Source of the DNA: a virus
Lineage: Duplodnaviria; Heunggongvirae; Uroviricota; Caudoviricetes
Length of the DNA: 5,545 nt
Virus record (IMG/VR): IMGVR_UViG_2529292726_000016
Direction: 5' to 3' (one strand)
Positions 147 through 4,918 of this stretch are shown in pieces. Below the pieces are notes generated by a model. It saw only the letters and a program-made list of their open reading frames with translations. It ran no database searches and had not been told where the DNA came from. A program made the position numbers and the translations under genes. The stretch's first letter is position 1, and the number at the start of each line of letters is the position of its first letter.

Positions 147-890
147 ATGACACAGACAGAATCAGCGATTCTGGCGCACGCCCGGCGATGTGCGCCAGCG
201 GAGTCGTGCGGCTTCGTGGTAAGCACGCCGGAGGGGGAAAGATATTTCCCCTGCGTGAATATCTCCGGTGAGCCGGAGGCGTATTTCCGTATGTCGCCGG
301 AAGACTGGCTGCAGGCAGAAATGCAGGGTGAGATTGTGGCGCTGGTCCACAGCCACCCCGGTGGTCTGCCCTGGCTGAGTGAGGCCGACCGGCGGCTGCA
401 GGTGCAGAGTGATTTGCCGTGGTGGCTGGTCTGCCGGGGGGCGATTCACAAGTTCCGCTGTGTGCCGCATCTTACCGGGCGGTGCTTTGAGCACGGGGTG
501 ACGGACTGTTACACGCTGTTCCGGGATGCTTATCATCTGGCGGGGATTGAGATGCCGGATTTTCATCGCGAGGATGACTGGTGGCGTCACGGTCAGAATC
601 TCTATCTGGATAATCTGGAGGCCACGGGGCTGTATCAGGTGCCGTTGTCAGCAGCACAGCCGGGCGATGTGCTGCTGTGCTGTTTTGGTTCATCGGTGCC
701 GAATCATGCCGCCATTTACTGTGGTGATGGCGAGCTGCTGCACCATATTCCTGAACAACTGAGCAAACGAGAGAGGTACACCGACAAATGGCAGCGACGC
801 ACACACTCCCTCTGGCGTCACCGGGCATGGCGCGCATCTGCCTTTACGGGGATTTACAACGATTTGGTCGCCGCATCGACCTTCGTGTGA
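147..890 (+). CDS. K: Tail tip assembly protein K (JAB/MPN metallopeptidase plus NlpC/P60 cysteine peptidase), long form
   Basis: ORF 147..890, 247 aa, TGA stop at 888..890. Complete JAMM signature H68-x-H70-x7-S78-x2-D81 (HSHPGGLPWLSEAD, nt 348..389) with a candidate upstream Glu (E19). Downstream is an NlpC/P60-like region with candidate catalytic Cys121 (GVTDCYTLF) and His residues (PNHAAIYCGDGELLHH). Start is uncertain: ATG 147 has no clear SD but lies 5 nt after a TAA; internal ATG 291 (MSPEDW) has GGAGG at 275..279 and would give the 199-aa form annotated in lambda, which lacks the N-terminal part of the JAB fold. Confidence 0.9.
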   Translation: MTQTESAILAHARRCAPAESCGFVVSTPEGERYFPCVNISGEPEAYFRMSPEDWLQAEMQGEIVALVHSHPGGLPWLSEADRRLQVQSDLPWWLVCRGAIHKFRCVPHLTGRCFEHGVTDCYTLFRDAYHLAGIEMPDFHREDDWWRHGQNLYLDNLEATGLYQVPLSAAQPGDVLLCCFGSSVPNHAAIYCGDGELLHHIPEQLSKRERYTDKWQRRTHSLWRHRAWRASAFTGIYNDLVAASTFV

Positions 891-1459
891 AAACGGGGGC
901 TGAAGCCATCCGGGCACTGGCCACACAGCTCCCGGCGTTTCGTCAGAAACTGAGCGACGGCTGGTATCAGGTACGGATTGCCGGGCGGGACGTCAGCACG
1001 TCCGGGTTAACGGCGCAGTTACATGAGACTCTGCCTGATGGCGCTGTGATTCATATTGTTCCCAGAGTCGCCGGGGCCAAGTCAGGGGGCGTATTCCAGA
1101 TTGTCCTGGGGGCTGCCGCCATTGCCGGATCATTCTTTACCGCCGGAGCCACCCTTGCAGCATGGGGGGCAGCCATTGGGGCCGGTGGTATGACCGGCAT
1201 CCTGTTTTCTCTCGGTGCCAGTATGGTGCTCGGTGGTGTGGCGCAGATGCTGGCACCGAAAGCCAGAACTCCCCGTACACAGACAACGGATAACGGCAAA
1301 CAGAACACCTATTTCTCCTCCCTGGATAACATGGTTGCCCAGAGCAATGTTCTGCCCGTTCTGTACGGTGAAATGCGCGTGGGGTCACGGGTGGTTTCTC
1401 AGGAGATCAGCACGGCAGACGAAGGGGACGGTGGTCAGGTTGTGGTGATTGGTCGCTGA
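788..1459 (+). CDS. I: Tail assembly protein I (N-terminal ubiquitin-like beta-grasp domain ending in Gly-Gly, then hydrophobic Gly/Ala-rich segment)
   Basis: ORF 788..1459, 223 aa, TGA at 1457..1459, the same length as lambda gpI. RBS-like GAGAGG at 771..776. Residues 14-101 end in ...HIVPRVAGAKSGG (Gly-Gly codons at 1085..1090). Next comes a roughly 55-residue hydrophobic stretch with repeated GxxxG/AxxxG spacing (VFQIVLGAAAIAGSFFTAGATLAAWGAAIGAGGMTGILFSLGASMVLGG), then a polar C-terminal tail. The 5' end overlaps the K 3' end by 103 nt in a different frame. Confidence 0.9.
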   Translation: MAATHTLPLASPGMARICLYGDLQRFGRRIDLRVKTGAEAIRALATQLPAFRQKLSDGWYQVRIAGRDVSTSGLTAQLHETLPDGAVIHIVPRVAGAKSGGVFQIVLGAAAIAGSFFTAGATLAAWGAAIGAGGMTGILFSLGASMVLGGVAQMLAPKARTPRTQTTDNGKQNTYFSSLDNMVAQSNVLPVLYGEMRVGSRVVSQEISTADEGDGGQVVVIGR

Positions 1460-1519: not shown

Positions 1520-2515
1520 ATGGGTAAAGGCAGCAGTAAGGGGCATACCCCGCGCGAAGCGAAGGACAACCTGAAGTCCACGCAGTTGCTGAGTGTGATT
1601 GATGCCATCAGCGAAGGGCCGATTGAAGGTCCGGTGGATGGATTAAAAAGCGTGCTGCTGAACAGTACGCCAGTGCTGGACAGTGAGGGGAATACCAATA
1701 TCTCCGGCGTCACGGTGGTGTTCCGGGCAGGTGAGCAGGAGCAGACACCGCCGGAGGGATTTGAATCCTCCGGCTCCGAGACGGTGCTGGGTACGGAAGT
1801 GAAGTACGACACGCCGATTACCCGGACCATCACGTCTGCAAACATCGACCGTCTGCGCTTTACCTTCGGTGTGCAGGCACTGGTGGAAACCACCTCAAAG
1901 GGGGACCGGAATCCGTCGGAAGTCCGCCTGCTGGTTCAGATACAGCGTAACGGTGGCTGGGTGACGGAAAAAGACATCACCATTAAAGGCAAAACCACCT
2001 CGCAGTATCTGGCCTCGGTGGTGGTGGATAACCTGCCGCCGCGCCCGTTCAACATCCGGATGCGCAGGATGACGCCGGACAGCACCACAGACCAGCTGCA
2101 GAACAAAACGCTCTGGTCGTCATACACCGAAATCATCGATGTGAAACAGTGCTACCCGAACACGGCACTGGTCGGCGTGCAGGTGGACTCGGAGCAGTTC
2201 GGCAGCCAGCAGGTGAGCCGTAATTATCATCTTCGCGGGCGCATTCTGCAGGTGCCGTCGAACTATAACCCGCAGACGCGGCAATACAGCGGTATCTGGG
2301 ACGGAACGTTTAAGCCGGCATACAGCAACAACCCGGCCTGGTGTCTGTGGGATATGCTGACCCACCCGCGCTACGGCATGGGGAAACGTCTTGGTGCGGC
2401 GGATGTGGATAAATGGGCGCTGTATGTCATCGGCCAGTACTGCGACCAGTCAGTGCCGGACGGTTTTGGCGGCACGGAGCCGCGCATCACCTGTAATGCC
2501 TGGCTGACCACGTAG
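1520..2515 (+). CDS. J: J N-terminal fragment (331 aa) ending at the in-frame amber codon
   Basis: ORF from the track, MGKGSSKGHTPREAKDNLKSTQLLSVIDAISEGPIEGP..., the conserved N-terminus of lambda-family J proteins. Terminates at TAG 2513..2515. Confidence 0.8.
   Translation: MGKGSSKGHTPREAKDNLKSTQLLSVIDAISEGPIEGPVDGLKSVLLNSTPVLDSEGNTNISGVTVVFRAGEQEQTPPEGFESSGSETVLGTEVKYDTPITRTITSANIDRLRFTFGVQALVETTSKGDRNPSEVRLLVQIQRNGGWVTEKDITIKGKTTSQYLASVVVDNLPPRPFNIRMRRMTPDSTTDQLQNKTLWSSYTEIIDVKQCYPNTALVGVQVDSEQFGSQQVSRNYHLRGRILQVPSNYNPQTRQYSGIWDGTFKPAYSNNPAWCLWDMLTHPRYGMGKRLGAADVDKWALYVIGQYCDQSVPDGFGGTEPRITCNAWLTT

Positions 2516-4918
<2,403 letters not shown>

Follow-up and report, generated by a model that had tools for sequence, protein, structure and literature searches.

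Ubiquitin-like Domain of the Tail Tip Protein I in a Lambda-like Prophage and Its Possible Removal by the Neighbouring JAB Peptidase K

Genes K and I in the Tail-Tip Module

We analysed a 5545-base stretch of viral DNA (IMG/VR record IMGVR_UViG_2529292726_000016), referred to below as the window, which is the tail-tip module of a lambda-like prophage. The subject of this work is gene I, coding for the tail tip assembly/insertion (plug) protein, and gene K, coding for a protein with two peptidase domains. Gene I is located between K (147..890) and J (from 1520), and this order is common to 12 of 12 sampled phages. A short note made earlier from the DNA letters alone (the original prediction) had placed a ubiquitin-like protein I beside a JAB peptidase K, and this arrangement was borne out by Pfam, AlphaFold2, Foldseek and the map of open reading frames (ORFs). 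The features of the two genes are the following (aa, amino acids; nt, nucleotides):

147..890, plus strand: gene K for a tail tip assembly protein of 247 aa, counted from the first ATG (ORF; Pfam Prok-JAB and NlpC/P60).
153..440, plus strand: JAB/JAMM domain of K, residues 3-98 (Pfam PF14464 Prok-JAB, E = 8.3e-14).
486..818, plus strand: NlpC/P60 papain-like domain of K, residues 114-224 (Pfam PF00877, E = 1.2e-12).
788..1459, plus strand: gene I, tail tip assembly/insertion (plug) protein, 223 aa and stop (ORF).
788..826, plus strand: N-terminal extension of I, residues 1-13, specific to close lambda relatives (distant homologues mostly start at M14).
827..1078, plus strand: predicted ubiquitin-like beta-grasp domain of I, residues 14-97, ending in the near-invariant G96-A97 at nt 1073-1078 (Pfam, AlphaFold2, Foldseek, conservation).
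1064..1090, plus strand: flexible tail or linker R93-VAGAKSG-G101, from the last strand to helix H1, holding both candidate cut sites (drop of model confidence, column counts).
1091..1258, plus strand: uncharged Gly/Ala-rich hydrophobic helical hairpin of I, residues 102-157, the H1 and H2 of the cryo-electron microscopy (cryo-EM) papers (AlphaFold2 helices, composition).
1259..1456, plus strand: C-terminal plug/insertion region of I, residues 158-223 (match to 9E7M, cryo-EM papers).

The protein I was identical at 221 of 223 residues to lambda gpI in the Protein Data Bank (PDB entry 8IYK, chain I; E = 1.5e-140), and the only differences were I164T and G186S. Its residues 133-222 matched chains of PDB entry 9E7M (E = 6e-51), and the whole protein matched phrog_32 (PHROG 32) at E = 4e-82. 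I and K of the window are lambda gpI and gpK themselves.

Ubiquitin-like Fold of the N-Terminal Domain

The Pfam family PF06805 (Lambda_tail_I) was detected at residues 14-97 of I with E = 1.1e-28 and a score of 100 bits against a cut-off of 23.8. Among 1.84 billion representative proteins, 3009 relatives of I were found. An alignment of 57 sequences, consisting of 56 relatives with 33-60% identity to the query and the window protein, was used for AlphaFold2. The predicted local distance difference test score (pLDDT) was 94-98 over residues 11-90, with a mean of 64 over residues 1-10 and of 67 over residues 91-100, which lie between the last strand of the domain and the helix 100-129. In the model, the elements follow each other as strand 14-19, helix 21-26, strand 29-33, helices 37-47 and 49-57, strand 60-64, helix 74-78 and strand 87-92. 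When this model was compared with PDB structures by Foldseek, 50 of the 50 best matches were ubiquitin-like beta-grasp proteins. The best was SAMP1 (E = 5.8e-5), followed by CysO, MoaD, Urm1, the Caldiarchaeum ubiquitin bound to its Rpn11 homologue, ubiquitin and SUMO, and the target TM-scores of the best matches were 0.68-0.75. The resemblance of the modelled domain to the beta-grasp is far beyond chance. It had been claimed that residues of about 14-101 adopt this fold, and the claim is confirmed by the structure prediction of I alone, by the Pfam match and by Foldseek. The I family profile gave weak matches in PDB to the MoaD-related 1V8C and to a ThiS/MoaD protein. The fold assignment rests on Foldseek, and the profile comparisons with MoaD and ubiquitin were used as register hints only.

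In the carriers and modifiers of this group, the C-terminal Gly is free and is adenylated by an activating enzyme (E1). In I, about 125 residues follow the domain in the same ORF, and no E1-like gene was found in the window (Pfam of 4 ORFs) or among the annotated genes of the sampled phage loci. The domain has a predicted fold of the ThiS/MoaD/SAMP/Urm1 type, but it is not such a carrier or modifier as encoded.

Conserved Glycines and the Candidate Cut Sites

The Gly-Gly that had been placed at nt 1085..1090 was found there by reading of the codons: S99 is encoded by 1082-1084, G100 by 1085-1087 (ggg) and G101 by 1088-1090 (ggc). The domain was said to end in this pair. The pair is present, but it is not the most conserved glycine feature of the region, which is G96-[A/S]97. 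Across the 57 aligned sequences, the family-wide conserved motif is P92-x-h-x-G96-[A/S]97. Invariant residues are P92, G108, G143 and G150, and G96 is kept in 55 sequences. At position 97, 45 of the 57 sequences have Ala, 9 have Ser and 2 have Gly (56 of 57 taken together), whereas Gly is present at position 100 in 28 and at position 101 in 48. Apart from P92, the invariant and near-invariant residues of the ubiquitin-like domain are all glycines.

In the profile comparisons, the segment HIVPRVAGA of I matched HLVLRLRGG in ubiquitin and FFPPVTGG in Escherichia coli MoaD position by position, so that G96 falls on the penultimate Gly, that is MoaD G80 and ubiquitin G75. From the conservation together with this register it follows that the counterpart of the ubiquitin Gly-Gly would be G96-A97, and the Gly-Gly of lambda sits 4 residues downstream of it. 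A cut in this region would be expected either after G96-A97 or after G100-G101. The cut after Gly101 that was proposed originally is not the best-supported option, because G96-A97 is near-invariant and lies in the MoaD/ubiquitin register. Ge and Wang (PMC11101478) state that gpI is resolved 'from position 101 onward' in the closed state and that its N-terminal domain is unresolved. A cut upstream of G101 would likewise agree with a lambda model whose first residue is 101; such a start fits the G96-A97 option slightly better, without deciding between the two sites. In genome annotation, the boundary of the domain can be placed at the conserved G-[A/S] motif.

Peptidase Domains of K and Co-Occurrence with I

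In the closest E. coli prophage, the annotation of K reads C40 family peptidase (744 nt). Its JAB domain contains E19 (nt 201-203) and H68-S-H70-x7-S78-x2-D81 (nt 348-389), which is a complete motif of a putative zinc-dependent peptidase. The NlpC/P60 domain contains the triad C121 (nt 507-509), H187 (nt 705-707) and H199 (nt 741-743). We aligned 13 K proteins from phages of hosts as distant as Acinetobacter, Vibrio, Ralstonia, Burkholderia and Mannheimia. The JAMM residues were conserved in 13 of 13, and the same was observed for the NlpC/P60 Cys (in DC[YW]), His (in NH[AGS]) and HH pair. There is no solved structure of K, the nearest solved relative being 2KKS (E = 1.3e-5). By mass spectrometry, gpK is absent from lambda virions (PMC10721106).

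Homologues of I were searched for with tblastn in annotated phage genomes, which gave 12 distant loci. The hosts of these phages include Acinetobacter, Mannheimia, Ralstonia, Burkholderia, Klebsiella, Serratia, Pectobacterium and Vibrio, and further loci come from Shigella (phage Sd1), Escherichia (HK106, CharmingMan) and phiKO2. In each of the 12, K has its two peptidase domains and I has the ubiquitin-like domain. In 5 of them other genes are present between K and I, and K is still kept. In a tblastn search of 50,697 phage records, I was detected in 1574 and the JAB domain of K in 1490, and the counts per genus were near equal (Ralstonia 60/60, Burkholderia 39/39, Stx1a phages 45/45). The JAMM-processed ubiquitin-like systems are encoded as neighbours or as fusions. 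Both forms are seen here, in the 12 loci, in the matching distribution and in PHROG families of fused proteins (JAB-to-I phrog_35166 and K-to-I phrog_28576; I-to-J 31 is also present). Two single distant proteins used as queries against viral contigs gave no confirmed relatives.

Hydrophobic Hairpin and C-Terminal Plug

Residues 102-157 of I contain no charged residue, 25% Ala and 20% Gly, and AlphaFold2 predicts helices at 100-129 and 136-155. The term 'glycine-rich hydrophobic hairpin' is accurate for this segment. The glycine zipper named in the original prediction did not hold: GxxxG occurs 2 times against a mean of 1.83 in shuffles of the same composition, so it is no commoner than the composition predicts. 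In the case of the small-xxx-small-xxx-small pattern, 9 occurrences were counted against 5.7 expected, a number that 10% of the shuffles reach. In the search of PDB with the family profile of I, the hairpin (residues about 100-150) matched the VirB2 pilin and the ClyA-family toxins MakA, VCA0883 and NheL1, all with non-significant E values of 0.1-2.4. The matches to membrane-inserting regions of pore-forming toxins are probably compositional, though they are consistent with the membrane insertion proposed for gpI. After residue 155, AlphaFold2 gave a coil of low confidence for the isolated protein. This is as expected for residues 158-223, because the segment folds only inside the complex.

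The statement that the role of the hydrophobic part is poorly resolved is out of date, as cryo-EM work since 2023 puts this part in the lumen of the tail tip. In lambda, gpI residues 135-223 were modelled as a trimeric plug in the tip lumen (PMC10721106), and in Ur-lambda residues 134-222 were modelled (PMC12617516). The trimer rests against the tape measure protein's C-terminal coiled coil (PMC10721106, PMC12617516), and in the F-pyocin homologue the helices encircle the tape-measure coiled coil (bioRxiv 10.64898/2026.02.24.707460). In virions, the C-terminal region of gpI threads gpJ by beta-sheet augmentation and closes the tip (PMC10721106, PMC11101478). After binding of LamB, helices H1 and H2 of gpI vanish, and their insertion into the outer membrane was proposed (PMC11101478).

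Proposed Processing of I

The idea of I/K processing is already in the literature, so the feature is real but not new. Iyer, Burroughs and Aravind reported in 2006 a ubiquitin-like domain in 'TAPI' of lambda and T1, with a conserved C-terminal Gly and a glycine-rich linker (PMC1779556). They also described JAB and NlpC/P60 domains in 'TAPK' and proposed that the JAB domain frees the ubiquitin-like domain at its last Gly (PMC1779556). This is the computational prediction to which the original prediction correctly gave credit.

The N-terminal domain of I is not seen in the lambda structures of PMC10721106, PMC12617516 and PMC11101478, nor in two F-pyocin structures. In a mass-spectrometry table of the lambda virion, gpI is represented by one peptide, with 9.87% coverage. 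The only tryptic product of gpI that fits this value is the C-terminal 22-mer 202-223, hence no N-terminal peptide was detected; coming from one peptide, this absence is weak evidence. In the case of F-pyocin, the N-terminal region of PA0640, the I homologue, was undetectable by mass spectrometry in mature particles and present in assembly-stalled mutants (bioRxiv 10.64898/2026.02.24.707460). In the structure from the same work PA0640 is visible only from residue 127, and in the second pyocin structure residues 128-200 were modelled. The K homologue PA0639 is absent from the particles, and its deletion results in tip-less tubes (bioRxiv 10.64898/2026.02.24.707460). The preprint names no protease and mentions neither ubiquitin nor JAB (bioRxiv 10.64898/2026.02.24.707460). 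The processing of I had been called unresolved; removal of the N-terminal region has now been shown for PA0640, so the statement is partly out of date and holds for the cut site and the protease.

The folds and motifs described above, the gene arrangement, the virion location of the C-terminal two-thirds of I and the N-terminal loss in F-pyocin are direct results, and JAMM enzymes are the known processing peptidases of prokaryotic ubiquitin-like tails. On these grounds, our main account is that the JAB domain of K removes the ubiquitin-like domain of I, which we judge to be somewhat on the likely side. From the same data we infer a cut in lambda gpI, the JAB domain of K as its protease, and a chaperone or shield role for the removed part.

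In this account, I would be made as a three-part precursor composed of a prodomain (residues 14-97), a flexible Gly-containing tail and a functional part (the hairpin 102-157 and the plug 158-223). During the loading of I into the J-L tip complex, the prodomain would accompany the membrane-active hairpin, and it would probably keep the hairpin soluble and block premature docking of the tape measure and tube. The JAB domain of the non-structural K would then cut the tail after G96-A97 or G100-G101, releasing the prodomain. After the cut K would leave, and the tape measure and the tube could dock. The remaining part of I, from about residue 98 or 102 to 223, would stay in the tip as a trimer against the tape-measure C-terminus and plug the exit. 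On receptor binding the plug would open, and the hairpin would be released towards the outer membrane.

Several points weigh against this account. No experiment ties K to the cleavage of I in any system. When PA0640 is produced by itself in E. coli, unknown host proteases remove its N-terminal region (bioRxiv 10.64898/2026.02.24.707460), and therefore a dedicated protease may not be required. The missing density and the single peptide in lambda are equally compatible with a flexible domain that stays attached and with poor detection of peptides. The second peptidase domain of K could make the cut instead of JAB. With regard to the site, the alignments with MoaD and ubiquitin that give the register are statistically weak (hhalign probability 2-3%), and several homologues have no Gly-Gly at 100-101, so a cut after that pair cannot be universal.

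A wider form of the account can be put forward only tentatively, and we place it just short of an even chance. According to it, the JAB domain of K would be the protease of the F-pyocin 'proteolytic checkpoint', and the same step would take place in all lambda-like and T1-like siphophage tails and F-type tailocins, with the cut at G96-[A/S]97 licensing the docking of tape measure and tube.

The domain may also be removed by other means, namely by the NlpC/P60 domain of K or by host proteases acting on the exposed linker. JAB would then have another substrate, or would only bind the domain. The trimming of PA0640 in E. coli by host proteases speaks for this explanation, as do the predicted flexibility of the linker and the conservation of the NlpC/P60 triad, which equals that of the JAMM motif in the 13 K proteins. 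Moreover, virions contain no K. Its NlpC/P60 domain is thereby kept from the peptidoglycan of the host infected next and must have a substrate inside the producing cell. However, NlpC/P60 enzymes are mostly cell-wall amidases and endopeptidases, while JAMM peptidases are generally known to process ubiquitin-like tails. JAB-to-I fusions without NlpC exist (phrog_35166), and in assembly-stalled pyocin tips the N-terminal region remains stable, which favours regulated over nonspecific cutting. We consider this explanation unlikely.

Less probable still, and in our opinion improbable, is that the lambda domain is never cut and stays attached but mobile, being invisible to cryo-EM, and that K acts on another substrate such as gpH. 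The weak evidence from a single gpI peptide leaves room for it, and the cleavage of gpH has no assigned protease (PMC12617516). Against it, the homologous pyocin protein demonstrably loses the region, and we reason that three domains of ~10 kDa would have to share the lumen with the gpI trimer and the tape-measure coiled coil.

We give hardly any credit to the explanation in which the released domain is a true modifier ligated to a phage or host protein. It would agree with the predicted ThiS/MoaD/SAMP-like fold and the conserved Gly near the domain end, but position 97 is usually Ala or Ser and not Gly. In addition, the four scanned ORFs of the tail module (4 of 4) have tail-protein or peptidase Pfam domains, none of them E1-like or like a conjugating enzyme (E2), and no E1- or E2-like enzyme was found among the annotated genes of the sampled phage loci. 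Finally, the authors of PMC11101478 speculated that the lambda virion has its missing peptidoglycan-cleaving enzyme in the N-terminal part of I. This suggestion has a negligible chance of being right, as the structural neighbours are all ubiquitin-like carriers or modifiers with no hydrolase among them, the only invariant or near-invariant residues of the domain are P92 and glycines, and the homologous region is absent from mature pyocin particles.

Comparison with Known Systems

The closest system is lambda itself. Its gpI and gpK (PF06805; TAPI/TAPK) are essentially the same proteins, with the same gene order and the same 103-nt K/I overlap. The window copy differs from lambda in the G186S change of I at a near-invariant Gly and in its location in a decayed prophage, where L holds an insertion sequence (IS) and J is broken by an amber codon. 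As a discovery the window adds little, since I and K belong to lambda itself. What is added here is the G-[A/S] register, the negative zipper test, the data on co-occurrence and catalytic-site conservation, and the connection of the prediction of 2006 with the pyocin result of 2026.

The same three-part architecture is found in F-pyocin, in the pair of PA0640 (PyoF9, tip plug or THIP) and PA0639 (PyoF8) (PDB 9L9P, 25VF). PA0640 shares the motif ...IRIVP-x-x-G-S-K-x-G-G-L-F-Q, and only its C-terminal third is seen in particles. PA0639, the K homologue, is essential for tip formation although it is absent from the particles. In contrast to the window proteins and lambda, the identity is only 30-35%, and the N-terminal loss was measured for PA0640 and not for lambda.

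The pairs QbsD-QbsE, Mec+-CysO, HvJAMM1-SAMP and the Caldiarchaeum Rpn11 homologue with its ubiquitin are examples of JAMM/ubiquitin-like processing in prokaryotes. They likewise have a ThiS/MoaD/SAMP-type beta-grasp beside a JAMM protein with the full motif (E...HxHx7Sx2D). Unlike them, lambda I and K come without E1, E2 or a sulfur-transfer partner. The ubiquitin-like part of I would be discarded, and the product would be a C-terminal extension of ~120 residues, not of a few. In the I family, the residue in the register of the terminal Gly is Ala or Ser, and the cleavage by K is a proposal.

In eukaryotes, Ub-L40 and Ub-S27a are made with an N-terminal ubiquitin fused to a structural protein; the ubiquitin aids production or assembly and is then clipped off. 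The likeness to I is an analogy in logic only, as the clipping is usually done by cysteine deubiquitinases and the cargo is not homologous. The plug domain of T5 pb3 occupies the place that I has in the tip lumen, closes off the tube and was proposed to reach the outer membrane (PMC10721106). In contrast to I, it is an internal domain of the hub protein and not a separate gene, and no ubiquitin-like prodomain has been reported for it.

If the JAB domain of K does cut I, a twenty-year-old prediction would be confirmed, and the role of K, which is essential yet absent from virions, would be explained. It would also name the protease left open by the 2026 F-pyocin work and give a clear example of a ubiquitin fold used in viruses as a removable assembly prodomain. 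A removable prodomain of this kind would matter for the engineering of phage tails and tailocins. Under the wider form of the account, ubiquitin-like processing chemistry would be widespread in viruses as a means of assembly control, independent of conjugation machinery.

K-I Overlap, Start Sites and State of the Prophage

Two further features of the window are the following:

788..890, plus strand: K/I overlap of 103 nt, with I in the -1 frame of K (ORF map).
1520..4918, plus strand: gene J (ORF and Pfam), broken by an in-frame amber codon.

The ATG of I at 788 is preceded by GAGAGG at 771-776, 11 nt ahead of it. A programmed -1 frameshift leading to a K-I fusion was considered and rejected, as the overlap contains no canonical -1 slippery heptamer. 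The K-I fused ORFs P0009, P0013 and P0017 are single-member entries with different join points, and we judged them to be errors or pseudogenes. P0029 was rejected as a designed JAB-I fusion, since in it a deletion has brought K residue 65 next to I residue 43. The protein P0168 is highly repetitive (2783 aa), and 23 of its stretches match I residues 10-63 (E = 3e-37). It looks like a translated repeat array and is probably a spurious or out-of-frame prediction, not a phage protein. The minus-strand ORFs called across 788-1252 have no support.

Most homologues of I start at lambda M14. Start calls for I are inconsistent: the annotation pipeline PGAP uses a GTG at window position 887 (190 aa), many E. 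coli records use M14 (210 aa), and PDB has 223 aa. One of the loci (L001, 2292-2864) is linked to such inconsistent K/I start calls. A start at GTG 887 drops the first two strands of the beta-grasp. K must start at ATG 147, because a start at the internal Met49 loses the catalytic E19. Truncated start calls for K and I therefore delete catalytic or structural residues in genome annotation.

The tail genes of the window follow the order L remnant, K, I, J and lom, with K, I and J identified by ORF calling and Pfam. In megablast comparisons, the window was 96-97% identical to lambda relatives and 99.6% identical to one E. coli prophage, and in all matches the phage homology starts at window base 95. 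Bases 1 to ~105 are the end of the IS21-family element ISEc10, downstream of istB, and are 96-98% identical to the copies of CFT073 and further strains. Insertion of this element in gene L has left only the last 47 nt of the gene (95-141). In J, an in-frame TAG at 2513-2515 stands in place of the CAG (Gln332) of the 99.6%-identical E. coli prophage, and it splits the gene into ORFs of 331 aa and 795 aa. From the IS in L and the amber codon in J we conclude that the locus belongs to a decaying, defective prophage. K and I remain intact ORFs despite this decay.

Codon 186 of I (window 1343-1345) is AGC for Ser, in place of the Gly of lambda gpI. This position is Gly in 108 of 108 close homologues with the NMVAQxN motif and in at least 90% of distant homologues, and it falls in the part of I that threads through gpJ. 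In a decaying prophage, G186S may be deleterious.

Small unrelated genes and terminators were observed between K and I in Mannheimia phage 535AP2, HK106, phiKO2, Vibrio phage pVa-2 and CharmingMan. The inserts, located at 2263-2498 in locus L003, 2215-2477 in L008, 2108-2475 in L010, 828-2421 in L011 and 2022-2432 in L013, include genes for a lipoprotein and a zinc-ribbon protein and, on the opposite strand, anti-repressor and KilA-N genes. Morons appear to have been inserted repeatedly at the K-I junction.

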